Assembly: GCA_050742975.1 (NCBI GenBank) | Contig: JBOGDQ010000070.1 | Coordinates: 19,889 to 83,888 of the forward strand | Direction: 5' to 3' | DNA from: Jatrophihabitantaceae bacterium | GTDB lineage: Bacteria > Actinomycetota > Actinomycetes > Mycobacteriales > Jatrophihabitantaceae | DNA: 64,000 nt | Part shown: positions 9,038-58,575 of the stretch, one piece after another | Position numbering within the stretch: the first letter of the stretch is position 1 | Layout: every line of letters starts with the position of its first letter | Translations under genes and position numbers: made by a program | Notes under the pieces: model-generated | What the model was told of the DNA's origin: nothing | The model's database searches: none | Seen by the model: the letters and a program-made list of their open reading frames with translations, nothing else

Positions 9038-9084
9038 CGTGGGCCCCGTGGGGCTCGAACCCACAACCTACGGATCAAAAGTCC
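9038..9084 (-). repeat. distal att-type repeat: displaced 3' portion of tRNA-Lys (partial, non-functional)
   Basis: Identical to 14287-14333 except 9076 C versus 14325 T. It lacks the 5' half of the tRNA. Confidence 0.88.
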
Positions 9085-9186
9085 TCGGGTCGGCCAGCAT
9101 CACCGCGCGCCAGACAGCCCAAACCCCTGTATTCATGGGACTCCCTCTGACTAGCGCATAGGTGCGTGTCGGTCGCTGTCGCTACC

Positions 9187-14216: not shown

Positions 14217-14288
14217 AGCCGCTGCGTCGACCATGTCGTTGGCCGCGCAAAACCCGTTAATCACCTCGTATATAAGGGATTCATGCCG

Positions 14289-14361
14289 TGGGCCCCGTGG
14301 GGCTCGAACCCACAACCTACGGATTAAAAGTCCGCAGCTCTGCCAATTGAGCTAGAGGCCC
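14289..14361 (-). tRNA. tRNA-Lys (anticodon UUU)
   Basis: The reverse complement GGGCCTCTAGCTCAATTGGCAGAGCTGCGGACTTTTAATCCGTAGGTTGTGGGTTCGAGCCCCACGGGGCCCA folds as a cloverleaf with a 7-bp acceptor stem, anticodon loop CTTTTAA and T-loop GGTTCGAGCC. CCA is not encoded. Confidence 0.95.
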
Positions 14362-21731: not shown

Positions 21732-21748
21732 CCCGTACGATCGGCCCC

Positions 21749-40039: not shown

Positions 40040-40092
40040 CCCGATTGTGCAACTCTCGGCGGTCTGACACCGCCGGAGGTTGCACAATCGGG
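40040..40092. repeat. 53-nt compound palindromic element (CCCGATTGTGCAAC...GTTGCACAATCGGG), copy 1
   Basis: A 14-bp perfect outer stem plus inner CGGCGG/CCGCCG stem, 7 nt after the hemD-fusion stop. A near-identical element lies at 46294-46345. Confidence 0.8.
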
Positions 40093-40105
40093 TAGGAACG
40101 GGGTT

Positions 40106-42114: not shown

Positions 42115-42879
42115 TCAGCGCGGCGCCATGCGGATCGCGCCGTCGAGGCGGATGACCTCGCCGTTGAGCATCGGGTTGCCGACAATGTGCTCGACCAGCG
42201 CGGCGTACTCGGACGGGTCACCGAGCCGGCTCGGGTGCGGTACCTGGGCGCCGAGCGAGTCCTGCGCCTCCTGCGGCAACCCCTCGAGCATCGGCGTCTT
42301 GAACAGGCCGGGCGCGATCGTCATGACGCGGATCTGCCTGTCGGCAAGGTCGCGCGCGATCGCCAGCGTCATCCCCACGACGCCGCCCTTCGACGCGGAG
42401 TAGGCCGCCTGCCCGACCTGGCCGTCGAACGCCGCGACGGACGCGGTGTTGACGATGACGCCGCGCTCGCCGTCGACCGGTTCGGTGGCCGCAATCCGTT
42501 CTGCGGCAAGGCGAATCACGTTGAAGGTGCCGATCAGGTTGACCGTGACGACGCGGGCGAACTGCTCAAGCGGCAGCACCACCCCCTTTCCGCTGATAAC
42601 CCGGCCCGGTGTGCCGATGCCCGCGCAGTTGACCGCGATGCGGATCGGGCCGAGAGCGGCGGCGGCGTCGAGTGCAGCGGCCACCTGGGCCTCGTCCGTG
42701 ACGTCGGCCGGGGCGAAGCTGGCCTGCGTCCCGATCGACTCCACGGCCTTTTCACCCGGCGCGGACGGGAGGTCCACCAGCACCACCCGGGCCCCGGCCG
42801 TGGCCAGGCGCCGCGCCGTAGCCTGGCCGAGCCCGGACGCGCCGCCGGTGATGACCGCGACGCTGCCTTCGATGTTCAT
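42115..42879 (-). CDS. 3-hydroxyacyl-CoA dehydrogenase-type SDR
   Basis: [15 protein letters not shown]...[12 protein letters not shown]...[17 protein letters not shown]10-like pattern. Confidence 0.85.
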
Positions 42880-43230
42880 TCACTTGCCCTTTCGAGTCCG
42901 GGATCGGGGTCGATCCTGCACCACGGGCAGCGGGCGCAGCGGTACCGGGGTGGTGACCACGATCGACGTCACGGTCTGGCCGTACAGCAGGAACCGGTCC
43001 AGGACGGACTCCAGTTCGGCGATCGTCGGCGCGTGGACGCGGACCAGGAAGCAGTCCTCGCCGGTGATGCGGTGGCACTCGGTCACCTCGCGCAGCGACC
43101 TCGCCAGGTCCGCGATCTTCGCGAGCTGTCCCGCGGCCGGGCGGATCCGGGTGAACGCGGTGACCGGCATCCCGAGCGCAGCCGGATCGACGTCGAGGTG
43201 GTAGCCACCGATGACGCCGGACCGCTCCAT
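42880..43230 (-). CDS. Lrp/AsnC-family ligand-binding (RAM) domain protein lacking the N-terminal HTH (probably 5'-truncated)
   Basis: It begins MERSGVIGGYHLDVDPAALG, which is the linker after the HTH in full-length Lrp/AsnC proteins (compare 58585..59037). An in-frame TGA lies 15 nt upstream. The upstream space is occupied by 48-nt repeats. Confidence 0.6.
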   Translation of the reverse strand: MERSGVIGGYHLDVDPAALGMPVTAFTRIRPAAGQLAKIADLARSLREVTECHRITGEDCFLVRVHAPTIAELESVLDRFLLYGQTVTSIVVTTPVPLRPLPVVQDRPRSRTRKGK

Positions 43231-43252
43231 CCGCTGCCGTGCTCAGTGAGCG

Positions 43253-43300
43253 GATCTTCCTGCGCCAGCCGTCACCGGCACTACCCGGCGCAGGAAGATC
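43253..43300 (-). repeat. 48-nt palindromic repeat element, copy a (reverse orientation)
   Basis: The reverse complement GATCTTCCTGCGCCGGGTAGTGCCGGTGACGGCTGGCGCAGGAAGATC has 13-bp terminal inverted repeats. It lies 22 nt upstream of ATG 43230. Confidence 0.85.
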
Positions 43301-43319
43301 GCGCGGCGCAGGTGAAGTG

Positions 43320-43342
43320 CCCGGCGCAGGAAGATCGCGCGG
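43320..43342 (-). repeat. partial duplicate of the 48-nt element end (CCCGGCGCAGGAAGATCGCGCGG)
   Basis: 23-bp direct repeat of 43284-43306. Confidence 0.75.
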
Positions 43343-43352
43343 CCGGCAACTG

Positions 43353-44222
43353 GTGTCGCGGCTGCCACCCACGTCGTTCTTCCTGACCAGCGCGATCTTC
43401 CACTACCTCGGACCGTCGCTGGCCGTGCTGCTGTTCGCGCACGTCGCGGCGCTGGGTGTGGCCTGGCTGCGCATCCTGTCGGCGGCGGTGGTCTTCGCGC
43501 TCTGGCGTCGTCCGTGGCGGCTGCTGCGGTCGATGACGCGTTCGCAGCGACGGCTGTTGTTGGCGCTGGGCGTGGTGCTGGCGGGGATGAACTCGCTGTT
43601 CTACCTCGCCGTCGCCCGGCTGCCGCTGGCGACGGTCGGCGCGATCGAGTTCCTCGGCACGGTCGTGCTCGCGAGCCTCGGTGCGCGGACGACCCGCAAC
43701 GTGCTGGCGCTGCTGCTCGCGGTCGGCGGGGTGGCTGTCCTGACCGACGTGCGGATCGCCCATGACCTGACCGGCTTCGTGTTCGCGTTCGCCAACTGCG
43801 TCGGGTTCATGCTGTACGTAGTGCTGGCACACCGGGTGGCCAGCGAGGGCGCTTCGCGGGGCCAGCTGGGCGGGATCGACCAGCTCGGCGCGGCGATGCT
43901 CGTCGCGGCGTTCGCGTCCGCACCGCTCGGGCTCGCCGACGCGCTGCCCGCGTTCGCCCACCCGCTCTGGTTGCTGTGGGGCGTCGGCGTCGGGGTGTGC
44001 TCGTCGGTCATCCCGTACGTCACCGACCAACTGGCGATGGCGCGGCTGCCGCGGGCGACGTTTGCGCTGATGCTCGCGCTGCTGCCAGCGGCGGCGACGC
44101 TGATCGGGCTGGTCGTGCTCGGCCAGGTGCCGACCCGGCCGGACATCGCCGGCATCGTCCTGGTGATTGCCGGCCTGGCCGTGCACCGCGAGTCGGAGGT
44201 GCCCACGTCCCTGGGAGAATGA
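43353..44222 (+). CDS. EamA/DMT-family transporter
   Basis: Ten-TM pattern with duplicated EamA halves. Start at GTG 43353 because the listed upstream extension reads through the repeat elements. Confidence 0.8.
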
Positions 44223-45544
44223 CCGGCGTGAGCACCGATGCCCCGATCTCGGCCGAACTGTTTGCTCGCGCGCAGCGTGTGACCCCGGGGGGCGTGAACT
44301 CGCCTGTGCGAGCGTTTCACGCGGTCGGCGGCACGCCCCGGTTCATGGTCAGCGGGACCGGTGCGTACCTGACCGATGCGGACGGCCGGCAGTACGTCGA
44401 CCTGGTCTCGTCGTGGGGGCCGATGATCCTCGGGCACGCGCATCCTGCCGTCGTCGCCGCCGCTCAGGCCGCCGCCGCCGGTGGGCTGTCGTTCGGCGCG
44501 CCCACGATCGGTGAGGTCGAGCTCGCGGAGACGATCGTCGAACGGGTCGCCTCGCCGTCGCTGCAGCAGGTCCGGCTCGTCAACTCCGGTACCGAGGCGA
44601 CCATGTCGGCGATCCGGCTGGCCCGCGGCGTCACCGGCCGGCACCGGGTGGTGAAGTTCGCCGGGTGCTATCACGGGCACGTCGACGCGCTGCTGGCCGC
44701 GGCCGGTTCGGGCGTCGTGACGTTCGCGCTGCCGGACACGCCCGGAGTGACCGGGGCGCAGACCGCCGAGACGATCGTGCTGCCGTACAACGATCTCGCT
44801 GCCGTCGAGGTGTGCTTCGCCGAGTTCGGCGCGGACATCGCCTGCGTGATCACCGAGGCGGCGGCCGGGAACATGGGCGCCGTGCCGCCGGCGGCCGGTT
44901 TCAACGCCGGTCTGCGGGAGATCACGTTCAAGCACGGTGCGCTGCTGATCATGGACGAGGTGATGACCGGGTTCCGCGTGTCGGCGTCCGGCTGGTACGG
45001 CCTCGATCCGGTCGAGGCGGACCTGTTCACGTTCGGGAAGGTGATGAGCGGCGGGCTGCCGGCGGCCGCGTTCGGGGGTCGCGAGGACGCGATGGCCCGG
45101 CTCGCTCCGTCCGGGCCGGTCTACCAGGCCGGGACGCTGTCGGGGAATCCGGTCGCGGTCGCGGCCGGGCTGGCGACGCTGCGCGCGGCGGACGCGCGCG
45201 TGTACGCGGCCCTCGACGCGAACGCCAGCACCGTCGGCCGGCTGGTGTCGACGGCGCTGGCCGAGTCCGGTGTGGCGCACCAGGTGCAGTTTGCGGGCAA
45301 CCTGTTCTCGGTGTTCTTCGGCGCCGAACCCGTCGTCGACTTCGCCGGCGCGCAGGCCGCCGAAACCTGGCGGTACCCCCCGTTCTTCCACGCGATGCTG
45401 GACGCCGGCGTGTACCTGCCACCGAGCGCGTTCGAGGCCTGGTTCGTCAATGCCGCTATGGACGACGGCGCCCTGGCCCGGATCGCCGACGCCCTCCCGG
45501 CCGCCGCCCGCGCCGCGGCCGCCGCGGCGGAACGCCCGAACTGA
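44219..45544 (+). CDS. hemL: glutamate-1-semialdehyde 2,1-aminomutase
   Basis: [20 protein letters not shown]...DEVMTGFRV...GKVMSGGLP motifs. ATGA-coupled to the transporter gene. Confidence 0.95.
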
Positions 45545-45556
45545 TGGCCGAAGGTG

Positions 45557-45604
45557 GATCTTCCTGCTCCGAGCGCACCGGGTGACGGCTGGCGCAGGAA
45601 GATC
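45557..45604 (+). repeat. 48-nt palindromic repeat element, copy b
   Basis: GATCTTCCTGCTCCGAGCGCACCGGGTGACGGCTGGCGCAGGAAGATC, 12 nt after the hemL stop and 24 nt before GTG 45629. Confidence 0.85.
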
Positions 45605-45628
45605 GAGTCGGTTTGGGAGGATGGGCGC

Positions 45629-46291
45629 GTGATCACCGTTCACCTGCTGCGTCACGGCGAGGTCTTCAACCCCGACCGGATCCTGTACGGGCGGCTACCC
45701 GGCTACCGGCTCTCGGACCTCGGGATCGCACAGGCCAAGCTCGCGGCCGAGTACCTGGCGCAGCGGCCGATCGGCTACCTGGTCTGCTCCCCGCTGGAGC
45801 GCGCACAGCAGACTGCGCAGCCGCTGGCCGAGGCCCTCGGGCTGCCGATCGCCGTCGACGAACGCCTGCTCGAGGCCGACAACCATCTCGAGGGACGCCA
45901 GGTCGCGGGCGGGAAGGGCCTGCTCACCGACTGGCGTAGCTACCGGTACTACTGGAACCCGTTCCGTCCGTCGTGGGGTGAGCCGTACGCCGAGATCGCG
46001 ACGCGGGTGCTGGCCGCCGCCCGCAGCGCGCGTGACGCCGCCCGTAACGCCGCCGCCAACGACGCCGCCGACGTCGGCGCGCAGGCCGAGGCCGTGTGCG
46101 TCACTCACCAACTGCCGATCGTCGCAGCTCGACGACAGGCCGAGGGCAAGGTGCTGTTCCACGACCCGCGCCGGCGCGAGTGCGGCCTGGCGTCGGTCAC
46201 CTCGTTCACGTTCGACGGGGACCGGATCGCCGACATCACGTACGCCGAGCCGGCCGCCGCGCTGCCGTCCGGACACGGAGCCGGTGCGTGA
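45629..46291 (+). CDS. histidine phosphatase family protein
   Basis: VHLLRHGEVFNP... RHG motif. In hemL-phosphatase-thioredoxin-ccdA-resB-ccsB synteny. Confidence 0.82.
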   Translation: MITVHLLRHGEVFNPDRILYGRLPGYRLSDLGIAQAKLAAEYLAQRPIGYLVCSPLERAQQTAQPLAEALGLPIAVDERLLEADNHLEGRQVAGGKGLLTDWRSYRYYWNPFRPSWGEPYAEIATRVLAAARSARDAARNAAANDAADVGAQAEAVCVTHQLPIVAARRQAEGKVLFHDPRRRECGLASVTSFTFDGDRIADITYAEPAAALPSGHGAGA

Positions 46292-46293
46292 CG

Positions 46294-46345
46294 CCGATTG
46301 TGCAACTCTGGGCGGCGTGAGACCGCCGAAAGTTGCACAATCCGG
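46294..46345. repeat. compound palindromic element (CCGATTGTGCAAC...GTTGCACAATCCGG), copy 2
   Basis: Same architecture and near-identical arms as 40040-40092. It starts 3 nt after the phosphatase stop. Confidence 0.8.
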
Positions 46346-46420
46346 TCTGGAGCCGGCCTGCATCACAGCGGGCTGAGCCGACTGCGGGCGCGCGGACCGG
46401 GTAACGCACACTGGACGTCG

Positions 46421-49372: not shown

Positions 49373-50413
49373 GTGGCTGGCATCGACGGTTCCATGGCCC
49401 ACCTGTCCGACTCGTTGTTCACGACCTCGATCGCGATCTACGCGGTCGCGATGGTCGGGTACACGGCCGAATACGCCTTCGGGCGCCGGGGACGGATCGC
49501 AGCCACGGTGCCGGTCGCCGCGCGCGAGCTCGTGGGCGCCAGGGGGGGTCCCCCCGCCAATTGGGGCGTAACCGGCGGGGGAGGGCCGCCGTCCGTCGAG
49601 TCGATACCCCCTGCGCCGTCTCCTACGCGACCATCGGCCGCCGAGCGCATCGGTCGCTTCTCCTTCGCCATCACCGTGCTGGGCGCGCTGTTCCACACGG
49701 CATCCATCGCGGTTCGTGCCACGGCCGTCGACGCGGTGCCGTGGAGCAACATGTACGAGTTCGCATCGGTCGCGGGTCTCGTCGGTGTCATCGCGTTCAT
49801 CGCCCTGCTCTGGCGGCTGCCCGCGATCCGGCACCTCGGCGGGCTGATCCTGCTGCCGGTCATCCTGCTGATGTTCCTGGCCGGGACGGTGTTCTACTCC
49901 AGGGCCCAGCCGCTCGTTCCCGCGCTGCAGTCGTACTGGCTGGCCATCCACGTCACGCTGGTCTCGATCGCCGAGGGCGCGCTGATGACCAGCGCGGTGC
50001 TGACCGTGCTGTTCCTGGCCAAGCAGCGCTACGACCGGATCAGCGTGCGGCCCGGCTTCAAGCCCGGCTCGCTGGCCACGCTTGCCTCGCGGCTGCCGGA
50101 CGCGACCACCCTGGACAAGGCCGCGTACCGGATCGTCGCGTTCTCCTTCCCGCTGTACACGGTCGCGATCATCTGCGGTGCCATCTGGGCGGAGGCCGCC
50201 TGGGGGCGGTACTGGGGCTGGGACCCGAAGGAGACCTGGGCGTTCATCGTCTGGGTTATCTACGCCTGCTACCTGCATGCGCGCGCGACCGCCGGCTGGA
50301 AGGGCCGCGCTGCGGCCTGGGTGAACCTGGCCGGGTTCGGTGCGATCATCTTCAACTTCGTGATCGTCAACGTGGTCATCTCCGGGCTGCACTCCTACGC
50401 CGGCCTCAGCTGA
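49373..50413 (+). CDS. ccsB: cytochrome c-type biogenesis protein CcsB/ResC
   Basis: WGRYWGWDPKETWAFI tryptophan-rich haem-handling motif. Start is GTG 49373 (ATG 49394 is an alternative). Confidence 0.9.
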   Translation: MAGIDGSMAHLSDSLFTTSIAIYAVAMVGYTAEYAFGRRGRIAATVPVAARELVGARGGPPANWGVTGGGGPPSVESIPPAPSPTRPSAAERIGRFSFAITVLGALFHTASIAVRATAVDAVPWSNMYEFASVAGLVGVIAFIALLWRLPAIRHLGGLILLPVILLMFLAGTVFYSRAQPLVPALQSYWLAIHVTLVSIAEGALMTSAVLTVLFLAKQRYDRISVRPGFKPGSLATLASRLPDATTLDKAAYRIVAFSFPLYTVAIICGAIWAEAAWGRYWGWDPKETWAFIVWVIYACYLHARATAGWKGRAAAWVNLAGFGAIIFNFVIVNVVISGLHSYAGLS

Positions 50414-50498
50414 CCCGCCCGCTGCTGCTGCAGCGCTCCGGCGTCCGAGGCCATGATCAAAGTAGCGGTTGCGACCAGATACGACAGGATCGGTGCTT

Positions 50499-50531
50499 CG
50501 GTCGGCGTGGCTGCGGCAGCCACGCCGACCG
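50499..50531. terminator. perfect 33-nt palindromic hairpin between convergent genes (candidate bidirectional terminator)
   Basis: CGGTCGGCGTGGCTGCGGCAGCCACGCCGACCG. It lies between the ccsB stop (50413) and the end of the minus-strand ORF (50719). Confidence 0.6.
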
Positions 50532-50718
50532 CGCCCTGTTCGCGGCGGACGGCACCGCTGCAGGACAGCTCCGGTTGCCTTGGCTATCGGATCTGCCCTT
50601 GTCCGGCGACGGATAGTGATGGTGCGGGGTGTATTACGCGCGTCATACAGCTTGGGGAGGCATGGTTCCAGGCAGCCGCGCTCTGCCGCCGATCTGGAGG
50701 TCCTGGGTTGTTGAGCGG

Positions 50719-51084
50719 TCACATATTGATCAACGAGCCGAGGGCGCTCAGCTCGGGCTCGCGTTGGCTTATCGAGTAAGCGACAACCTCGCCGTCTGGG
50801 TGCAGCCAGATACCAGTGAGGTGCTCGCCGGTGTGAGGCGCGAAGCCTTTCGGGCGCCGTGGGGCTACAAATGACCCTCGACCGGTGATGACGACAACAG
50901 GCCTGTTCGCGACAGGGTGATTCGCGTGTGTACGGGCTCCATAGACCGCGGTATCGGCAATCTGAAAGGTACTGAAAACGTACTTGAGATCGGTCGGTTT
51001 GGGCTCTCCACAGCCCGACGCCAGGCGCCGGAACTCGGCGCGGAGTTGTTCAGCCGGTGCGTCGTCCATCATCTCAGCATGCAC
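50719..51084 (-). CDS. hypothetical protein (121 aa) in a visibly more AT-rich segment
   Basis: ORF with non-biased composition (K, F, Y, H, I present). No recognisable motif. Confidence 0.5.
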   Translation of the reverse strand: MHAEMMDDAPAEQLRAEFRRLASGCGEPKPTDLKYVFSTFQIADTAVYGARTHANHPVANRPVVVITGRGSFVAPRRPKGFAPHTGEHLTGIWLHPDGEVVAYSISQREPELSALGSLINM

Positions 51085-51329
51085 CGACCGGGTCCTCGGG
51101 TCGCCCGCCGACGGTCGGACAAGGCCTCAGGAAGCACCAGGTATCTCGACCACACCGGGCGGCTGACTGCGCCGCCGACCGTCAGCAGCGTGATGCCCGG
51201 CTCGTGCCTGGTTCCGGTGTCCGCGAACCGGCGCGAGCCTAGCCGGACCAGTACGGCGAGCTGCGCGAACGTCGTCAGCAGCGCCAGCGCGGCCAGCCCG
51301 GCGCCTCGCATCGTGAACCAGACCGTCAT
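51069..51329 (-). CDS. small hydrophobic ORF (86 aa) ATGA-coupled to apbE; possibly a truncated membrane protein
   Basis: MTVWFTMRGAGLAALALLTTFAQLAVLV... The start overlaps the apbE stop. The tail runs into the AT-richer segment and overlaps the next ORF by 16 nt. Confidence 0.35.
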   Translation of the reverse strand: MTVWFTMRGAGLAALALLTTFAQLAVLVRLGSRRFADTGTRHEPGITLLTVGGAVSRPVWSRYLVLPEALSDRRRATRGPGRCMLR

Positions 51330-52237
51330 GCCGACACCGCCAGCGGATTCTGCTGCGGCCAGCCGCCGACGGTCGTGACCACACCGTCCACGGCAACGAA
51401 GCGGGCGGCCAGGTTCCGAGCGGCGAACCAGCCGAGCGCATCGGCGCCCAACACGATTCCCGCCGTGCTCGCCGTGTTGGCCGCCAGCGCGCACGGCGCG
51501 TAGACGGAGACGGTGCGCCACGGACCGGCCGCGGGCCGTCCGGTGCGCGGGTCGACGATGTGGTGCACGGCTGCGCCGCCACGACGCCACCGGCGGATCA
51601 CCGTGGTGGACGTGGCCATTCCGCCGTGCCGCACGAGCACGTGCTGACCGGTGTCACCGGCGCGCTCGGCGACGTCGATGCACCAGCCCTGCGGCCGGTT
51701 GCCGGCGACGGCGAGGTCACCGCCGAGCTCGACGAGCACCGCGGTGCCGTAACGCTGCGCGAGGGCGTGCGCGGCGTGATCGGCCAGGTAGGACTTCGCA
51801 GTCGCGCCGAGGTCCAGCGCTGCACCGGGCGGCACGGTCAGCAGCCCGGCGTCGCGGTCCAGCCGCACGTCCCGCCAGGTGCGCACCGCCGCCGACGGCG
51901 CCGCGGGACCGTCAGCCGAGACCGCCGCGATGTCCCGGTCGTAGCCGAGCCGGCCGAGCGTCGTCCCCACGGTGGGATCGACCAGGCCGCCGGTCGTGTC
52001 TGCGGCGTCGAGGGCGACGGCGACGAGATCGACGAGCAGGCGCGGCACCGGGACGGGTCGGCCGGCGCTCGAGTTCGCCTTCGACAGCGCGGAGTCCGGA
52101 CGGAAGCGGCTCGCCGCGGCGTCGACCCGGGCGAGCAGCGCGGCCAGGTCGGCGGCGGCTGGACGGATCGCGCGCTCGTCGTCGACCACGAGCCGGACCG
52201 TGCAGCTCCACGCCCGCATCACCTGAGTGGCGCTCAT
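51326..52237 (-). CDS. apbE: FAD:protein FMN transferase (ApbE family)
   Basis: ...LDLGATAKSYLAD...GGDLAV...HHIVDPRTGRP...ALAANTASTA... ApbE motifs. Confidence 0.85.
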   Translation of the reverse strand: MSATQVMRAWSCTVRLVVDDERAIRPAAADLAALLARVDAAASRFRPDSALSKANSSAGRPVPVPRLLVDLVAVALDAADTTGGLVDPTVGTTLGRLGYDRDIAAVSADGPAAPSAAVRTWRDVRLDRDAGLLTVPPGAALDLGATAKSYLADHAAHALAQRYGTAVLVELGGDLAVAGNRPQGWCIDVAERAGDTGQHVLVRHGGMATSTTVIRRWRRGGAAVHHIVDPRTGRPAAGPWRTVSVYAPCALAANTASTAGIVLGADALGWFAARNLAARFVAVDGVVTTVGGWPQQNPLAVSA

Positions 52238-52274
52238 CGCGACACCGCCGTCGCCCGGCCGGCAGCAAGGCTTC

Positions 52275-52556
52275 TCATGAGCCGTTGCTCCCGCCGGCGG
52301 GAGCCTGATCCTGCGTCGAGCTGGACAGGCCGCCGGTCGAGTCCGATCCGCTGTCCGTGCTGTTCGACGTCGTGGACGTCGTGCCGGTGGTGGTGGACGT
52401 CGTCCCGTGCGTGGTCGTCGTGGCCGCGGTGCTGTGCGAGACCCCGACGGTCAGCGCCGCGGTGAGCGCGACTCCGGCCGCCGCGGTGCCGCCGCCGGCG
52501 AGGACGGCCAGGCGGACCAGGCGCTTCGGGTTGCTGTTCTCGGTCATGCCGTTCAC
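52275..52556 (-). CDS. small membrane-anchored Thr/Ser-rich protein
   Basis: N-terminal TM (LVRLAVLAGGGTAAAGVALTAALTV) followed by a low-complexity T/S-rich tail. Immediately upstream of apbE. Confidence 0.45.
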   Translation of the reverse strand: MNGMTENSNPKRLVRLAVLAGGGTAAAGVALTAALTVGVSHSTAATTTTHGTTSTTTGTTSTTSNSTDSGSDSTGGLSSSTQDQAPAGGSNGS

Positions 52557-52631
52557 GATCGGGCCCAGCGCATCAGCGCCGCCTCACGCGAACGTCAAGG
52601 CCGTCCTAAGTTCGGCTTTGACCAGGTGAAG

Positions 52632-53207
52632 TCAGCCCGCCGGCCACGCCGGATCGCGCCCGCAGAGGCCGATCAGCCGATCCAGCGGCGGCGCCGATGC
52701 GGGTACCTCGACGACCGGGCCGAACGGGCCGTCCACCGGACGCAGATCGGCCGAGGCCTCCGCGAGCCTGATGCACTCCTGGACCAGGCCCGGGTCGGCC
52801 GCGAACGGCTGGCCACTGGCCCGGCTGACGTCCCAGCCGTGGACGACCAACTCGTTGACCGCCACCAGTCCCGCGACCTCGCCGGGCAGCGTGATGCCGC
52901 CGACCTCGGTCATCCCGTCCCAGGCGTCCGGCAGGGTCCACGCTCGCGCGAGAGCGCGCAGCTGCACCGGGATCTGCTCGCGCCAGCCGTCGGCGAGCCG
53001 GCTCGCGTCGCCCGACGGGGCCGCCGAACCACCGGGTGGCTGCTCCTTGTTCGCCGCGAACGTGAACGCAAGCGAGAGTCCGTTGACGTGCTCGATCAGG
53101 TCACCGAGCATGTAGTTCGGGCACGGCGTCGGCGCGCCGAGCTGGTCGTCGGTCACCGCGCCGAGCGCGCCGATCAGCCCTTCGGCCGCGGGGGTCAGGT
53201 AGAGCAT
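52632..53207 (-). CDS. TIGR03086/DinB-like mycothiol-dependent enzyme family protein
   Basis: GAVTDDQLGAPTPCPNYMLGDLIEHV is the typical N-terminus of this family. Confidence 0.78.
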   Translation of the reverse strand: MLYLTPAAEGLIGALGAVTDDQLGAPTPCPNYMLGDLIEHVNGLSLAFTFAANKEQPPGGSAAPSGDASRLADGWREQIPVQLRALARAWTLPDAWDGMTEVGGITLPGEVAGLVAVNELVVHGWDVSRASGQPFAADPGLVQECIRLAEASADLRPVDGPFGPVVEVPASAPPLDRLIGLCGRDPAWPAG

Positions 53208-53283
53208 GGTCGGGGTGTCCTTTCACGGTTGCGTCGTCTCACCAGTCAAGCGTCGTTGCACCAGTGAAGCGTCGTCTCACCAG

Positions 53284-54609
53284 TCAAGCCCAGTGGAGCA
53301 GCAACGTGATCAGCGCGCCCCCTGCTGCGCTTCGTCCGAGCGTCATCGTGCCGCCGCTGCCCTCAGCGCACCGGCGGGCGATGTCCAGGCCCAGCCCGGT
53401 CGAGCCGCGGTCGCTGCGGCCGCGGACCAGGGCGTCCTCCGGCAGCCCCGGCCCGGCGTCGGAGACTTCCAGCACCGCGCCCTCGTCGGATGCGACGAGC
53501 CGCACGCTGAACGCCGTCCCCTCCGGGGTGTGCGCGATGACGTTCTCCAGCAGCGCGTCGACGGTTGCGGCCAGATCCTCGGCCGATGTCCTGACCGGCA
53601 AAGGGGATTCGGGCAGGTTGACCTCGGTCGGGCGCTCCTGCTCGTCGGCCAGTGCGGACCAGAACGACACCCGCTCGCCGACGACGGAGGTGGCGTCGCT
53701 GGCGGGCATCCGACCCTCGCGCTGCGGACGCCGCGCAGCGTGGATGATCGCGGTGAGCATCCGCTCCAGCGTGCTCACGTGGTTGCCGACGCGCTCGGCG
53801 TCCTCCGGATCGCGCAGCGCCTCGGCGTCCAGGCGCAGCGCGGTCAGCGGGGTGCGCAGCCGGTGCGAGAGGTCCGCGACGGTCTCGCGCTCCTCGGCGA
53901 TCAGCTCGTCGATCCGATCGGCCAGCCGGTTCAGCGCCGAACCGACCTCGGCGATCTCGCGCGGGCCGTCGGTCGGTGCGCGCGCGGTCGTGTCACCGAC
54001 TGCGAGCTGCTGCGCCGTGTCGGCGGTGCGGACGAGCGGACGGACGATGCGCCGGGTCAGCAGCTCGGCGGCGAGCGCACCGAGCAGCAGCAGGCCGAGG
54101 CCGCCGCCGACCAGCAGGAACCACCACTTGGCCTCGCCCGCGTGCAGCGCGTCGTTCGACAGGTACACGCGGATGAAGTAGAACGTCGTGCTCGTGCGAG
54201 CGGTCGTCTCGGCCAGCTGCCCGCCGGGGATCGGATGCAGCGTCGCGTTGGGAGCGCCGCCCTCGGGCCCGCCACCGCCGGGCAGGTTGGGGAAGCCGTT
54301 GCGTGCACCCCGCGGGGTGAACTGCGCGGTTCGCGGGTCACTCGGCGTCGTGCCGATCGTCGTGCCGTCGGCCAGCGTCACCGACGTGGGCCGACCGGTG
54401 TTGGCCGATACGGACTGCACGTACGTCGTGATCTTGCTCTTCGTCGGTCCGCTGCCTAGGAAGAAGGCCGCGTTCTTGGCCTGGTCCAGAGTGGCCTGCT
54501 CGGCGCGCTGCGCGACGGCGGAGTGCAGCAGGATGCCGACCGGGATCGCGAAGGCGACCACGACCAGCGTCGTCATCCCGACGACGAGCAGCAGGATGCG
54601 GCGCCTCAT
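53284..54609 (-). CDS. sensor histidine kinase (HAMP-HisKA-HATPase)
   Basis: Two TMs and the H-box VADLSHRLRTPLTAL, plus GSTGLGLDIARR. Start at ATG 54609. Confidence 0.88.
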   Translation of the reverse strand: MRRRILLLVVGMTTLVVVAFAIPVGILLHSAVAQRAEQATLDQAKNAAFFLGSGPTKSKITTYVQSVSANTGRPTSVTLADGTTIGTTPSDPRTAQFTPRGARNGFPNLPGGGGPEGGAPNATLHPIPGGQLAETTARTSTTFYFIRVYLSNDALHAGEAKWWFLLVGGGLGLLLLGALAAELLTRRIVRPLVRTADTAQQLAVGDTTARAPTDGPREIAEVGSALNRLADRIDELIAEERETVADLSHRLRTPLTALRLDAEALRDPEDAERVGNHVSTLERMLTAIIHAARRPQREGRMPASDATSVVGERVSFWSALADEQERPTEVNLPESPLPVRTSAEDLAATVDALLENVIAHTPEGTAFSVRLVASDEGAVLEVSDAGPGLPEDALVRGRSDRGSTGLGLDIARRCAEGSGGTMTLGRSAAGGALITLLLHWA

Positions 54610-54661
54610 GCGGACCTCGACCCAGGCGTGGTCGTGGCCCGCGCGGCAGCGTTTCGGCTCG

Positions 54662-55351
54662 TCATGCCGATTCCGCCGGAGCCACCAGCCGGACGCCGAC
54701 GCCGCGCACGCTGTACAGGTAGCGCGGGTTCGCGGCCGTCTCGCCGAGCTTGCGCCGCAGCCAGGACAGGTGCACGTCGACCGTCCGGTCCGAGCCGCCC
54801 CAGGCCAGCTGCCACACCTCGGCCAGCAGGTCGCGCTTGCTGACAACCTCGCCGGCGCGACGTGCCAGGGCCAGCAGCAGCTCGAACTCCTTGCGCGCGA
54901 GCTCGACCGGACGCCCGTCGACGCTCACCTCGTAGCTGCGCGTGTCGATCTTCAGCCCGCCGACGGTGATCACCGGGTCCTCGTCGGTTCGCCCGGTCCG
55001 TCGCAGCACGGCTCGGATGCGCGCGTTCAGTTGGACGGCGGTGAACGGCTTGATCACGTAGTCGTCGGCGCCGAGCTCGAGCAGCCGCACCATCTCGGAC
55101 TCCTCGTCGCGCGCGGTGGCCACGATGACCGGGACGTCGCTGACCGCACGCAGCATCGACAGCACGTCGGCCCCGTCGAGATCGGGCAGGCCGAGGTCGA
55201 GGAGCACCACATCCGGCTTGCGCTCCACGGCTGAGGTCAGGGCAGGCATCCCCGAGCTGACCGACGCGACACCGTGGCCGAGTTCGCGCAGGGCACGGGT
55301 CAGCGCCGTGCGGATGGCGGCATCGTCCTCGACGAGCAGCACCTGGGCCAT
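54662..55351 (-). CDS. OmpR-family response regulator
   Basis: VLLVEDDAAI...DLGLPDLDG receiver and SVRGVGVRL winged helix. Confidence 0.9.
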   Translation of the reverse strand: MAQVLLVEDDAAIRTALTRALRELGHGVASVSSGMPALTSAVERKPDVVLLDLGLPDLDGADVLSMLRAVSDVPVIVATARDEESEMVRLLELGADDYVIKPFTAVQLNARIRAVLRRTGRTDEDPVITVGGLKIDTRSYEVSVDGRPVELARKEFELLLALARRAGEVVSKRDLLAEVWQLAWGGSDRTVDVHLSWLRRKLGETAANPRYLYSVRGVGVRLVAPAESA

Positions 55352-55392
55352 GGCCGCGAAGGTACACGCGACAGGCAGGGATACTGGTCGGC

Positions 55393-56853
55393 GTGGCGTT
55401 CTCGGATCTGCAGGACTTCCTCTCGGCGCTGGAGCGCGATGGCGACCTCGCGCGGGTCACGGCGCCGGTGGATCCACACCTCGAGGTGACCGGGATCGTC
55501 CAGCGCGTGCTGCGCGAGCAGGGACCGGCGCTGCTGTTCGAGAACCCGACGCGCGGCCGGATGCCGTTGCTGATGAACGCGTTCGGCACCCAGCGGCGGA
55601 TGGCGCGCGCGCTCGGTGTCGACGACCTGGACGAGATCGGCGCCCGGATCGCCGAGCTGCTCAAGCCCGAGTTGCCCCGCGGCGTCGGCGGCCTGCGCGA
55701 TGCGCTCGGGAAGGTGTCGCAGCTGCGGGCCGCGCCCCCGCGGCGGGTGCGGAGCGCGCCGTGCCAGGAGGTGATCGTCAAAGGCGACGACGTGGACCTG
55801 ATCGACCTGCTGCCCGGCGTGCAGTCGTGGCCGGACGACGGTGGCGTGTTCCTGAATCTCGGGCTGACGCACACCAAGCACCCCGAGACCGGCGCGCGGA
55901 ACCTCGGCATGTACCGGCTGCAGCTGCAGGATTCGCGCACCGTCTCGCTGCACTGGCAGATCCACAAGGACTCCACCTCGCACGCGGCGATCGCCGAGCG
56001 GCGGGGCGAGCGACTGCCCGTCGCGATCGCGTTCGGCTGCCCGCCGGCGGTGACGTACTCGGCATCCGCGCCGCTGCCCGCCGACATCGACGAGTACCTG
56101 TTCGCCGGCTTCGTCCAGCGCGAGCGCGTCGACATGGTCGACTGCGTCTCGGTGCCGCTGCAGGTACCGGCCGCCGCACAGATCGTGCTGGAGGGCTGGG
56201 TGTCACCGGGCGAGCGCCTACCGGAAGGGCCCTTCGGCGATCACACCGGTTTCTACACGCCGGTCGAGCCGTTCCCGTTCGTGCGGGTCGAGACCTTGAC
56301 GATGCGCGAGCAGCCGATCTACCAGTCGATCATCGTCGGGCGGCCGCCGCAGGAGGACGGGCCGCTGGGCAAGGCGACCGAGCGGATCTTCCTGCCGCTG
56401 ATCAGGATGAGCGTGCCGGAGATCGTCGACTACGACCTGCCCGAGGCCGGCGTGTTCCACAACTGCTGCATCGTCTCGGTCGACAAGCGCTTCCCCAAGC
56501 ATGCACAGAAGGTGATGAACGCGATCTGGGGTGCCGGGCTGCTGTCGCTGTCCAAGCTGATCGTCGTCGTGGACGCCGACTGCGACGTGCACGACTATGC
56601 CGAGGTGGCCTGGCGGGCGTTCGGCAACGTCGACTACGCACACGACGTGCAGCACACGGTCGGCCCGGTCGATCACCTCGATCATGCGTCGTACGAGCAG
56701 TTCTTCGGCGGCAAGCTCGGCGTGGATGCGACCCGCAAGCTGCCGACCGAGGGCTACCACCGTGCCGGTGGCTGGCCGTCGGAGTGTGTTCTCGACGCGG
56801 CGACGCTCGGGCTGGTGGACCGCCGCTGGAGCGAGTACGGGATCGGGCGATGA
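55393..56853 (+). CDS. UbiD-family decarboxylase (menaquinone via futalosine, SCO4490-like)
   Basis: FSDLQDFLSALERDGDLARV...GMYRLQL...HWQIHKD UbiD motifs, in a cluster with UbiA-like, UbiX and mqn genes. Confidence 0.88.
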   Translation: MAFSDLQDFLSALERDGDLARVTAPVDPHLEVTGIVQRVLREQGPALLFENPTRGRMPLLMNAFGTQRRMARALGVDDLDEIGARIAELLKPELPRGVGGLRDALGKVSQLRAAPPRRVRSAPCQEVIVKGDDVDLIDLLPGVQSWPDDGGVFLNLGLTHTKHPETGARNLGMYRLQLQDSRTVSLHWQIHKDSTSHAAIAERRGERLPVAIAFGCPPAVTYSASAPLPADIDEYLFAGFVQRERVDMVDCVSVPLQVPAAAQIVLEGWVSPGERLPEGPFGDHTGFYTPVEPFPFVRVETLTMREQPIYQSIIVGRPPQEDGPLGKATERIFLPLIRMSVPEIVDYDLPEAGVFHNCCIVSVDKRFPKHAQKVMNAIWGAGLLSLSKLIVVVDADCDVHDYAEVAWRAFGNVDYAHDVQHTVGPVDHLDHASYEQFFGGKLGVDATRKLPTEGYHRAGGWPSECVLDAATLGLVDRRWSEYGIGR

Positions 56854-56876
56854 GCGAGGCGGACAGGGTGTCCGGC

Positions 56877-56903
56877 GATCTTCCTGCGCCGGGTAGCGCT
56901 GGT
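56877..56903 (+). repeat. partial (27-nt) copy of the 48-nt element
   Basis: GATCTTCCTGCGCCGGGTAGCGCTGGT, abutting a full copy. Confidence 0.75.
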
Positions 56904-56951
56904 GATCTTCCTGCGCCTGGTGGTGCCCGTGACGGTATGGGTAGGAAGATC
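56904..56951 (+). repeat. 48-nt palindromic repeat element, copy c
   Basis: GATCTTCCTGCGCCTGGTGGTGCCCGTGACGGTATGGGTAGGAAGATC. Confidence 0.85.
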
Positions 56952-56975
56952 AAGACCGCGAGCCCGGCGCGCGTC

Positions 56976-57023
56976 GATCTTCCTGCGCCCGGTAGCGCCC
57001 GTGACGGTACGCGCAGGAAGATC
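56976..57023 (+). repeat. 48-nt palindromic repeat element, copy d
   Basis: GATCTTCCTGCGCCCGGTAGCGCCCGTGACGGTACGCGCAGGAAGATC, 21 nt before ATG 57045. Confidence 0.85.
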
Positions 57024-57044
57024 CGTCAGTTCCTGCGGCTGGTG

Positions 57045-57884
57045 ATGATCGAGCACTCGGTGTTCGCGCTGCCGTTCGCGTACATCGCCGCGCTCACCGC
57101 GATGTGGACGCAGAGCCGCTCGGTGCACTGGGTGCAGCTGCTGCTGATCACCGTCGCGATGGTGTCGGCGCGCACCGTCGCCATGTCCGCGAACCGCATC
57201 CTGGACCGCAACTTCGACGCGCTCAATCCCCGGACGGCGCGGCGCGAGCTGGTGACCGGCGCGCTGAGCGTCCGCTCGGCCTGGGTCGGTACGGCCATCG
57301 CGCTGGCGATCTTCCTGGCGACATGCGCCGCGCTGTCCTGGCTGTGCCTGGCCCTTGCCCCGATCGCGATCTTCCTGCTCGTCCTGTACTCGTACGGCAA
57401 GCGGTTCACGGACTTCCCGCAGGTGCTGCTCGCGTTAGCCCAGTTCGTGGCCCCGGTCGGCGCCTGGATCGCGGTCACCGGCTCGGCGTCATGGGCCGCC
57501 GTCGCGCTCGGTCTCGCGGTCGGCACCTGGATCGGCGGGTTCGACCTGATCTACTCGTGCCAGGACGCCGACGTCGACCGGCAGATCGGCTCACGCTCGT
57601 TCCCGGCCCGCTTCGGCATCCCCGCGGCCTTACGCGCGTCGTCGGTCGTGCACGGCGTGACCTTCGCCGGGTTCGCCTGGTTCGGAGTCGCTGCCGGGCT
57701 CGGCTGGGTGTGGTGGCTCGGCCTCGCGCTCATCGCGGCCGTCCTGGTCTACGAGCACGCGATCGTCCGACCCGACGACCTGTCCCGCGTGAACCGCGCC
57801 TTCTTCACCGCGAACGGCGTGATCGGCATCGGCCTGTTCACGTTCGCTCTCGCCGATCTGCTCGCCCACGGGTTGTCGCGGTGA
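57045..57884 (+). CDS. UbiA-family polyprenyltransferase (menaquinone via futalosine, SCO4491-like)
   Basis: MIEHSVFALPFAYIAAL...NRILDRNFDALNPRTARREL...D-rich motif QDADVD. The frame stays open back to ATG 56850 (ATGA-coupled to ubiD) through the repeats, so the true start is uncertain. Confidence 0.82.
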   Translation: MIEHSVFALPFAYIAALTAMWTQSRSVHWVQLLLITVAMVSARTVAMSANRILDRNFDALNPRTARRELVTGALSVRSAWVGTAIALAIFLATCAALSWLCLALAPIAIFLLVLYSYGKRFTDFPQVLLALAQFVAPVGAWIAVTGSASWAAVALGLAVGTWIGGFDLIYSCQDADVDRQIGSRSFPARFGIPAALRASSVVHGVTFAGFAWFGVAAGLGWVWWLGLALIAAVLVYEHAIVRPDDLSRVNRAFFTANGVIGIGLFTFALADLLAHGLSR

Positions 57885-57951: not shown

Positions 57952-58575
57952 GTGAACGGGGAACGGGTGCCGTGGGTGTTCGGGGTGTCCGGGGCATCGG
58001 GCACGGGATACGCGCGCGCGGTGCTCAACGCGCTTCTGGACGCGGGTGAAGCGGTCGACCTGATCGTCTCGCGAGCCGCTCGGCTGACGCTGCTGGACGA
58101 GGTCGGGCTGAGCTTCCGCGACGCGCACTGGCGCGAGGACCTGTCGATCTGGCTCGGGCGCGACCCCGGCAACTCCGTCCACTGGCCGGCGGGCGACCTG
58201 GCAGCAGGCCCGTCGTCCGGCTCCTACCGCACGCGCGGCATGCTCGTCGTCCCGGCGTCGACCGCAGCCGTCGCCGGCATCGCGATCGGACTGTCCAAGG
58301 ACCTGCTCCAGCGCGCCGCCGACGTGACCCTCAAGGAACGCAGGACGCTCGTCGTCGTCCCGCGCGAGACGCCGTACACCCGCGCCACGCTGCAGCACCT
58401 GCTCACGCTGCACGACGCGGGCGCGATCGTCCTGCCCGCGAGCCCGGGGTTTTACAGCGCAGCGAACAGCGTCCAGCAGCTCGTCGACTTCGTCGCGGCC
58501 AAGGTGCTCGACGGGATCGGCGTGGAGCACGACCTGATCACGCGCTGGAGCGGGGATCTGGGCGGCGCGCGGTAA
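57952..58575 (+). CDS. ubiX: UbiX-family flavin prenyltransferase
   Basis: WVFGVSGASGTGYA...MLVVPASTAAVAGIAIGLS...VVVPRETP motifs. Confidence 0.9.
   Translation: MNGERVPWVFGVSGASGTGYARAVLNALLDAGEAVDLIVSRAARLTLLDEVGLSFRDAHWREDLSIWLGRDPGNSVHWPAGDLAAGPSSGSYRTRGMLVVPASTAAVAGIAIGLSKDLLQRAADVTLKERRTLVVVPRETPYTRATLQHLLTLHDAGAIVLPASPGFYSAANSVQQLVDFVAAKVLDGIGVEHDLITRWSGDLGGAR

Follow-up and report, generated by a model that had tools for sequence, protein, structure and literature searches.

Palindromic GATC-bounded repeats within the mqnP reading frame of Jatrophihabitantaceae, and a nuclease-like gene bracketed by related repeats

What are the palindromic repeats that lie between a ubiD-like and a ubiA-like (mqnP) gene in a Jatrophihabitantaceae bacterium, and how do they come to stay in frame with the downstream gene? 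The question is raised by a first-pass annotation of 64,000 nt of contig JBOGDQ010000070.1 (assembly GCA_050742975.1, positions 19,889 to 83,888, forward strand); this whole stretch is referred to below as the window. The window contains four full copies of a 48-nt element with the structure GATCTTCCTGCGCC-N20-GGCGCAGGAAGATC, plus partial copies. Two of the full copies lie at the ubiD/mqnP junction: copy 1 (56904–56951, + strand), which has a degenerate right arm (GGGTAGGAAGATC), and copy 2 (56976–57023, +), the final codons of which (RRKI) adjoin the conserved MqnP peptide. The 24-nt spacer between them (56952–56975, +) yields the 72-nt period typical of doublets in this family, and they are preceded by a 27-nt (nine-codon) partial copy of repeat family D15, consisting of the left arm and 13 nt (56877–56903, +). 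A solo element is found at 45557–45604 (+), 12 nt past the hemL stop and 24 nt ahead of the GTG of a histidine-phosphatase gene, and the fourth full copy at 43253–43300 (−), at the truncation point of an Lrp/AsnC gene. Sequence inspection and a pattern search bore out the four full copies, the 27-nt partial copy, their coordinates and the GATC-ended arms described in the first-pass annotation, which had overlooked a partial single-arm copy (about 43315–43336, −) adjoining the last element. The answer we favour, with a probability of about 0.7, is that a dispersed element of 48–49 nt, resembling the repetitive extragenic palindromes (REPs), has become trapped in mqnP and is tied to a nuclease-like gene that co-varies with it.

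The TGA stop of ubiD (56851–56853) overlaps an ATG at 56850 (ATGA). The frame opened by this ATG had been said to continue through all the repeats into the UbiA core, and it does so, through 27 + 48 + 24 + 48 nt, or 49 codons. The ubiD stop overlaps an ATG or GTG (ATGA/GTGA) in frame with the MqnP core in the window and in all relatives examined as DNA. A 16-residue D-L-x...K-I module is carried by 38 of 120 MqnP relatives, and 35 of 39 modules occupy an identical position, ending two residues before the conserved F of KFL. The modules are always in the D-L…K-I frame, in copy numbers from 0 to 2.5. Two modules are present in P0013/L183 (relatives and loci are given as L numbers), 72 nt apart as in the window, and remnants of a second module were found in L134 and L182. 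Lengths at the junction differ by multiples of three throughout (the window has 27, 48 and 24 nt), and the first element begins 8, 14 (in five lineages), 20, 23 or 23 nt after the ubiD stop, in each case a distance of 2 mod 3.

At the DNA level each module is a 48-nt GATC-bounded palindrome, and the arms differ by lineage. They are GATCTTGTGC in L101, L117, L184 and L185, the L184 palindrome being nearly perfect with 20 paired positions; GATCTTGTTGCG in L183; GATCTTGATACGC in L170; and GATCTTCCTGCG in the window and, in decayed form, in L182. Comparison of twelve elements at this orthologous site showed that the arms pair in 89.7% of cells and that double changes have occurred at 7 of 13 pairs. 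Compensatory cells numbered 24, against 8.9 ± 2.3 in shuffled controls, and none of 500 shuffles reached 24; when the partner arm was slid out of register, pairing was 28–39%. The module peptides differ between lineages in the same way (DLV/HKI, DLV/NKI, DLP/RKI and DLD/IKI), with V, P or D paired with H, N, R or I. Since the arm-encoded residues change radically, and in base-pairing fashion, the constraint appears to be on the nucleic acid and not on the peptide. This bears directly on another explanation, in which the repeated peptide (DLPAPGSARDGTRRKI and its variants) is a functional motif of MqnP, for targeting or interaction, and the palindrome is incidental. A module that is always in frame and has a constant 16 residues is what such a motif would give, but it would not lead us to expect residues that switch exactly as base pairing requires, the same DNA in non-coding places and in both orientations, or the many MqnP proteins that have no module. 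We therefore consider a peptide motif very improbable.

The open frame, the coupled starts and the conservation of the module strongly suggest that the repeat tail is translated from the coupled start as an N-terminal extension of MqnP, as had been put forward as one possibility. In the window protein residues ~10–58 would come from the repeat cluster. In L129, L131, L134, L124, L181 and L182 the palindrome is being eroded by GAT>GAC and CTT>CTC changes. This erosion is synonymous third-position drift towards the codon bias of the genome, as expected for a translated sequence.

The same element occurs far from mqnP, dispersed through genomes of one group of soil actinobacteria. To our pattern GATCTTCCTGC-N20-32-GCAGGAAGATC, GTDB representative genomes yielded at least 100 stretches, and among the stretches listed all but two came from metagenome-assembled genomes (MAGs) labelled Jatrophihabitans, Jatrophihabitantaceae, 'Pseudonocardiales' or uncultured Actinomycetota. 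One MAG accounts for at least 19 blocks of 8 kb, spread over contigs of Mb size, and another for at least 16. The GATCTTCCTGCG…CGCAGGAAGATC family is a REP-like, dispersed one, and Jatrophihabitantaceae MAGs carry many copies of it each. A 46-nt match inside a coding sequence (CDS) of L089 (Bauldia sp.), outside the Jatrophihabitans-like group, is probably due to chance, and L051 (a Solirubrobacterales bin), which shares both sample and subfamily with an element-rich MAG, is probably a mis-binned contig. With two mismatches allowed per arm, at least 139 full copies were counted in 774 kb, 78 of them being 48 nt and 55 being 49 nt long; these copy numbers are lower bounds. The arms, whose positions 1–11 were set by the search pattern, are essentially invariant; the centres vary and are specific to each genome. 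Arm positions 1–13 are paired family-wide, and the 48-nt class has an inner GCGCC/GGCGC stem. In the 49-nt class the central A25-T26-G27 is nearly invariant (54, 47 and 43 of 55), at a place where the 48-nt copies of the window have GTGAC. Twenty-five arrays are direct, head-to-tail doublets with periods of 72–73 nt (13 arrays), 82–84 nt (6) or 59–63 nt. Solo arms have been amplified locally with periods of 19–30 nt; one genome regularly has solo arms beside its full elements, at a distance of 13 nt.

These further copies, and the positional bias described below, support the suggestion in the first-pass annotation of a REP- or MITE-like (miniature inverted-repeat transposable element) dispersed repeat. 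The family had gone unrecognised there, and Rfam offers no match to it: at gathering and permissive thresholds only a tRNA in the window passes its gathering score, and the best match at the element locus has an E value of 0.23 (20 bits against a 50-bit cut-off). The pattern had 0 matches in 100 dinucleotide-preserving shuffles. With arms of 11–14 nt and GATC at the outer ends, each copy is predicted to form a hairpin of −22 to −34 kcal/mol (z = −3.6 to −7.5). The predicted RNA fold of the whole ubiD/mqnP junction is not unusually stable for its GC content (z = −1.9); only the single hairpins are.

To place the copies relative to genes, we called open reading frames (ORFs) with our own procedure, based on the likelihood of GC content at third codon positions (GC3), which recovers the expected genes in the window. 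The 139 copies lie between convergent genes (53), co-directional genes (44) or divergent genes (9), inside a CDS (3), across a gene end (3) or at the edge of a locus (27). Half of the placed copies are therefore between convergent genes, against 19.5% of the intergenic regions in the same loci. Flank statistics were compiled for 114 arrays, drawn from 101 sequences. The neighbouring gene presents its 3′ end to the element in 147 cases (median distance to the stop codon 25 nt, with 82 within 30 nt) and its 5′ end in 59 (median distance to the start codon 117 nt). These figures refute the proposal that the element targets the region just upstream of start codons. A fixed orientation relative to the downstream gene, which had also been proposed, holds for the window and fails for the family as a whole, where copies are oriented about 50:50 with respect to the upstream gene. 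When stem mismatches were oriented by the upstream gene, G-T (64) and A-C (56) combinations showed no asymmetry, so that a role as an RNA hairpin on the sense strand finds no support in this test. Within L025 (5834–7117) a permease-like gene lies between two nearly identical elements 1236 nt apart, and its last ~20 codons are supplied by the downstream element; elements can thus also donate C-terminal residues and stop codons.

On the reading that we favour, the mqnP repeats would follow from this preference for gene ends. Elements with GATC-bounded arms of 11–14 nt and a variable, lineage-specific centre of 22–25 nt populate Jatrophihabitantaceae-like genomes and build up from a few to ~30 nt past stop codons, in either orientation and often as direct doublets with a period of 72–73 nt. 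An element landing at the usual distance after the ubiD (mqnL) stop would fall within the first mqnP codons, because this stop overlaps the mqnP start. Only insertions with a length of 3n and without a stop in the D-L...K-I frame would survive, and as their imprecise loss would be harmful they would be trapped. The outcome would be the 49-codon, repeat-encoded N-terminal tail, translated with MqnP, in which it is the palindrome and not the peptide that is conserved. In short, the overlapping stop and start would turn 'just after the stop' into 'just inside the next gene', and so place a repeat-encoded tail on a menaquinone enzyme across many lineages.

The hairpin at mqnP could instead be a locus-specific cis-regulatory structure, located ~14 nt after the ubiD stop, with the dispersed family a secondary expansion in one clade. 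It would set the ubiD:mqnP ratio by impeding the coupled ribosome, by stalling ubiD termination or by shielding the upstream mRNA from 3′ exonucleases. Liang, Rudd and Deutscher are said to have reported in 2015 that E. coli REPs within ~15 nt of a stop codon stall ribosomes. A regulatory origin would explain why the same 48-nt position is filled in many lineages with compensatory arm changes, why the 14-nt offset recurs in five of them, and why the L184 palindrome is so nearly perfect. It also agrees with the distribution of copies in the relatives with GTG-type arms, which show no others in the mqnP flanks: over ~80 kb of flanking sequence, the GATCTTGTG and GTT arm types were found only at mqnP itself. 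Apparent GATCTTCCT half-sites in those loci number one or two per locus and are not part of elements, except for the decayed junction copy of L182. Conversely, mqnP was absent from all 100 element-selected loci, and the mqnP junction in other element-rich genomes was seen in L181 and L182 only, decayed in both. On the other side, 82 of the 120 relatives have no module, and its copy number varies as described above. The T-to-C third-position changes by which it decays (in the six lineages named above) leave A-C and not G-U combinations on the sense strand. The same arm variants flank a nuclease-like gene elsewhere, so that the mqnP copy belongs to the family and is not a private structure. An origin of the hairpin as a regulatory structure of this locus is accordingly judged unlikely.

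An effect of the hairpin, as distinct from its origin, is compatible with the trapping of a dispersed element. The recurrent 14-nt offset, together with the near-perfect palindrome of L184, hints at such an effect, and the mqnP hairpins may influence ubiD termination, mqnP re-initiation or mRNA stability. Since the module is often absent, and decays in some lineages, any such role would be dispensable. Intrinsic termination found no support, in that no run of T follows the elements and a terminator scan of 56300–57400, of a kind that cannot detect U-less actinobacterial terminators, flagged none of them.

The nuclease-like gene was first noticed as an ORF between two doublets in L030, while solo arms were being listed. 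A tblastn search detected homologues (50–66% identity) in 6 of the 100 element-selected loci, and all six were bracketed by elements within ~10–200 nt. As an unbiased check, five further loci were selected by the protein and the length of its contig, and not by the elements, and here too the gene was bracketed by 48-nt GATC...GATC palindromes in every case, with no other such palindromes within ±5–6 kb. In all 11 loci, therefore, a gene for a protein of ~300 residues has cognate 48-nt elements on either side. Loci with the gene include L030 (1166–2122, −), L082 (6755–7669, −), L050, L071, L035, L008 and L186–L192. The flanking arms differ by lineage (GTGCG, GTTGCG, ATGTTGCG and CCTGCG types) and the arm type tracks the protein clusters. 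Thus L186 has GATCTTGTGCG, L187 and L189 have GATCTTGTTGCG, and L192 has GATCATGTTGCG, while L191 has GATCTTCCTGCGCC with a diverged right arm, in arrays of 4–5 units of 72 nt on both sides. The GTGC and GTTGC variants found around the gene also occur at mqnP in other lineages. Four genomes, with three arm types among them, share the neighbourhood methyltransferase–gene–diacylglycerol kinase (DAGK), and two share a moaA neighbourhood. In nearly all loci a pair of GTCCACAG motifs, 12–20 nt apart, lies 40–130 nt upstream of the gene and may be a promoter or operator.

The protein family comprises at least 810 homologues, nearly all annotated as hypothetical and a few named 'very-short-patch-repair endonuclease'. 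Many are encoded on contigs of 1–2 kb, as expected if assemblies break at the flanking repeats. The N-terminal ~180 residues match an AbiEi profile (PADLOC, E = 1e-6). An AlphaFold model (predicted local distance difference test score, pLDDT, 82.8; predicted template modelling score, pTM, 0.77) gave as best Foldseek matches the AbiEi antitoxin 6y8q (E = 1.5e-4) and Rv2827c, the whole-model result being dominated by the AbiEi part. The C-terminal ~55 residues gave weak matches to DUF559 (PF04480) in all four proteins tried (E = 4e-4, at 20.6 bits equal to the cut-off; 0.004; 0.009; and 0.15), and residues D237, E251, D253 and H257 are invariant. Searches of PDB, with a single sequence and with a profile, and of NCBIfam gave no significant match. 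These weak but consistent C-terminal matches point to a putative PD-(D/E)xK nuclease part of the DUF559/Vsr-like kind, joined to what is probably an AbiEi-like winged helix-turn-helix (wHTH) DNA-binding part.

The nuclease-like gene might be a selfish one of homing type that inserts in the spacers of doublets, while the palindromes spread or persist by other means, such as recombination, the action of another transposase or a role as terminator-like hairpins. A homing endonuclease family is known from the Vsr clade of PD-(D/E)xK nucleases, to which DUF559 belongs (PMC3424549, PMC3239194). Insertion into a 72-nt doublet predicts whole elements in direct orientation and nearly identical on both sides, and this is the arrangement in L030 and L189. 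The gene is also at different loci in some genomes. In L082 (CAVQKZ01, syntenic with the window) it occupies the hemL/histidine-phosphatase junction, which carries doublets in L082 and L069, a solo element in the window and no element in L150, so that a gene in one genome corresponds to a doublet in another and to a solo element in the window. Homing sits less well with the four genomes that share one neighbourhood but have three arm types, or with an arm type that follows the protein clade, both of which fit a long vertical co-evolution of gene and element. Nor does it readily account for low-copy lineages in which the only copies apart from mqnP are at the gene. Taken together, we view homing into pre-existing doublets as possible though unlikely.

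The comparison of orthologous sites was also informative about the element itself. At the hemL junction each genome has its own type of centre, with identical arms; the arms have thus been held constant while the surroundings and the interior diverged. A second site, at 21732, is empty in the window and filled in L042 by two elements and a partial copy directly after the TAG of the upstream gene, with extra flanking bases in the filled/empty comparison. Presence/absence polymorphism, which the first-pass annotation had suggested looking for among close relatives, is seen at both sites.

AbiEi proteins bind inverted repeats, and the arms might accordingly be operator sites of a regulator or nucleoid-organising protein with an inactive nuclease domain, the family being a regulon or a set of architectural sites. 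The fold and profile matches of the associated protein fit this idea, as do the symmetry of the palindrome, the lack of an RNA-strand signature, and a conservation of the arms that greatly exceeds that of the centres, also where orthologous sites of different genomes are compared. The sites, however, are found past gene ends and in convergent intervals, and only 9 of 112 are in divergent (promoter) regions. Single-arm amplification, doublets, arrays of 4–5 units and presence/absence polymorphism are hallmarks of repeat dynamics, and the putative catalytic residues are invariant. Operator sites thus seem a distinctly improbable explanation.

Returning to the trapped REP-like element and its partner gene, a mechanism can be outlined. 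The wHTH part of the protein would read the 11–14-bp arms, and the nuclease part would cut close to the GATC ends or right at them. In the repair or strand transfer that follows, elements would be copied to new sites and arms kept the same throughout a genome. The position after gene ends would result either from selection or from a preference for terminator regions prone to form hairpins. The logic would be that of the REP-associated tyrosine transposases (RAYTs) with their REPs or REPINs, served by an unrelated enzyme. In its fullest form this amounts to a new mechanistic class of REP type, in which a co-evolving, vertically inherited AbiEi-wHTH/DUF559 nuclease takes the place of a RAYT, recognising and cutting the 48-nt GATC palindromes and propagating them or keeping them homogeneous, and in which the mqnP copy is moreover kept as an expression-tuning hairpin across mqnL-mqnP. 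We put this full version forward as tentative, with chances somewhat short of even.

Several points weigh against the trapping of a mobile element with a partner nuclease. There is no direct sign of mobility. No target-site duplication of 2–6 nt was found beyond chance outside GATC, the palindrome ending exactly there, though the palindromic GATC might conceivably be a duplicated target itself. Among the sites compared there is no clean filled/empty pair with exact ends, the 21732/L042 pair having the extra bases mentioned above. The nuclease domain match is at or below the Pfam threshold, the PDB profile search was empty, and the gene does not lie in the 64-kb window, which is why the first-pass annotation could not see it. 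In lineages with GATCTTGTG-type arms, copies were found only at mqnP and around the nuclease-like gene (~80 kb and ~60 kb examined, respectively), so that there the mqnP copy could be a special, selected structure. Pairing of mqnP arms with gene-flanking arms in the same genome is limited to the arm type of the window. The case for translation of the MqnP tail is a comparative one, and the gene caller places the mqnP start at ATG 56937, within copy 1 (giving P0001, of 315 residues), a codon that has no counterpart in relatives. The placement statistics, finally, depend on our own GC3-based gene calls.

Most REPs are extragenic and are found 3′ of genes, in convergent or co-directional intervals; some overlap a stop codon or fall inside an ORF (PMC3733652). 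The elements described here resemble them in being short, imperfect palindromes able to form stem-loops (arms of 11–14 bp), in their high copy number, dispersal and lineage-specific sequence classes, and in their extragenic position 3′ of genes, with the same convergent and co-directional enrichment and the 25-nt median distance from stops. They differ in having GATC at both ends where a REP has a GTAG or CGTC tag at one end, in being longer (48–49 nt), and in their hosts, which are Actinomycetota and not Proteobacteria. Their doublets are direct, with a 72–73- or 82–84-nt period, whereas a REPIN consists of inverted REPs. The gene resembles the REPtrons, in which a low-copy gene bracketed by cognate repeats is vertically inherited and co-varies with them (PMC2817692, PMC5581495): it too is a low-copy gene between cognate repeats whose arms vary with the protein. 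In all 11 loci, however, the bracketed gene encodes the AbiEi-like wHTH and DUF559/Vsr-like protein and not an HUH/Y1 transposase. Among the papers searched, none connects DUF559 or AbiEi proteins with REP-like repeats, and the arm sequence was found in five unrelated papers only. The element is previously undescribed, and forms a family of the REP kind apart from its tag, its size and the orientation of its doublets.

Other known systems share fewer features. As in MITEs, there are terminal inverted repeats and no coding capacity, and the elements are hairpin-forming and often beside genes; they are shorter, however (48–49 nt against the usual 70–300 bp), with no detectable duplication beyond the GATC ends, and no insertion sequence (IS) with the same ends was seen. 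The Rickettsia palindromic elements offer an analogy, and only an analogy, for in-frame insertion into the ORF of a functional gene (here mqnP, by 16 codons), but they are 100–150 bp long and occupy many internal positions, in contrast to 48 nt at one place in mqnP. Mycobacterial interspersed repetitive units (MIRUs) are units of 40–100 bp that occur in tandem in operon junctions of Mycobacteriales, vary in copy number, and keep frames or overlap stops and starts. The repeats at mqnP likewise are copy-variable units in an operon junction that keep the frame; they are palindromic, which MIRUs to our knowledge are not, and we know of no nuclease associated with MIRUs. The AbiE type IV toxin-antitoxin systems share the AbiEi-like N-terminus, but no AbiEii toxin gene adjoins the gene described here, the neighbours being housekeeping genes (for methyltransferase, DAGK, MoaA, GltB and Pyk).

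REPs and RAYTs are the textbook case of a long-lived, vertically inherited partnership between a repeat and an enzyme, known essentially from Proteobacteria. The same genomic logic, with palindromes after genes, a bracketed low-copy gene and arms that change with the protein, appears here in high-GC actinobacteria with an unrelated enzyme fold. If the link between gene and element is functional, such partnerships have arisen more than once. A partner gene for the element is unexpected and testable, and would give a first function to the widespread and almost entirely unnamed 'hypothetical' AbiEi/DUF559 proteins.

The genes around the window copies were identified as follows. The ubiD-family decarboxylase (MqnL-like) is encoded at 55393–56853 (+; Pfam UbiD_N/UbiD/UbiD_C, E = 1e-27 to 1e-75), the UbiA-family prenyltransferase (MqnP-like) at 56850–57884 (+; Pfam UbiA, E = 4e-51) from the ATGA-coupled start, and a UbiX-like flavoprotein at 57952–58575; we take these three to be the late futalosine-pathway trio. 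Relatives of the MqnP-like protein are annotated as MqnP or 4-hydroxybenzoate polyprenyltransferase. Each full copy had been reported to end 21–24 nt before the conserved start of the next gene. The arithmetic is right, and GTG 45629 is a plausible start for the histidine-phosphatase gene, but the other two positions are not starts. ATG 57045 lies inside (K/R)(I/V)(K/R)KFLxLVMIEHS, a peptide present in all 120 MqnP relatives listed, even the shortest predictions, and in this region third codon positions vary among relatives as in coding sequence. ATG 43230 is an internal Met codon of the Lrp/AsnC gene, with an in-frame stop just upstream. With two of the three supposed starts gone, the 21–24-nt regularity is not real.

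The Lrp/AsnC gene is a remnant (42880–43230, −) that matches Pfam AsnC_trans_reg only and has lost its helix-turn-helix (HTH). Its orthologue in L093 is intact, and runs into a normal HTH where the window carries the element and partial copy. In the region 42880–43400 the full and partial elements stand in place of the sequence for the HTH and of the divergent promoter region that the gene shared with one for an EamA-type transporter, and in L069 the whole Lrp–EamA segment (window ~42879–44241) is missing. These loci carry a warning for annotation, in that gene callers put the MqnP start within a repeat and the truncated Lrp gene resembles an intact small ORF. At the hemL junction (45542–45632) the element is embedded in mini-ORFs that overlap in a chain. 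The first starts at an ATG that overlaps the hemL TGA (TGATG, 45542–45546) and stops at the TGA of the central GTGA of the element (45582–45585), and a GTG ORF from this GTGA ends at a TGA overlapping the phosphatase GTG start (45629–45632). The arrangement is MIRU-like, was seen once and may be due to chance. In L082 (CAVQKZ010000001.1, 1–440, −) the ORF that is ATGA-coupled to ubiD is unrelated to mqnP and is at a guess acetyltransferase-like; the same contig lacks ~5 kb of the window (50413–55376) between the cytochrome-c biogenesis genes and ubiD.

Other repeats were also noted. A second palindromic family, of ~52 nt with the structure CCGATTGTGCAAC...GTTGCACAATCGG, has copies in the window at 40041–40093 and 46294–46346 that are 87% alike and begin 8 nt and 3 nt, respectively, past the TGA stops at 40031–40033 and 46289–46291. 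It has GATC-bounded relatives of 47 nt, GATCGTGCAAC...GTTGCACGATC (L053:4198 and L165:2290) and GATCGGGCAAC (L017:625 and L079:584). Further GATC-bounded palindromes of ~50 nt (GATCAACAGC) are present at L106:6030 and L140:201, the L140 copy lying between ubiD and mqnP. Finally, a 59-nt direct repeat with 92% identity occurs in the window at 9038–9096 and 14287–14345, the copies being 5.2 kb apart. One copy is the 3′ part of a tRNA-Lys(ttt) gene (14288–14361, −) and the other has no tRNA call, which, judged from the sequence, is the signature of a putative integrated element with att sites at a tRNA gene.

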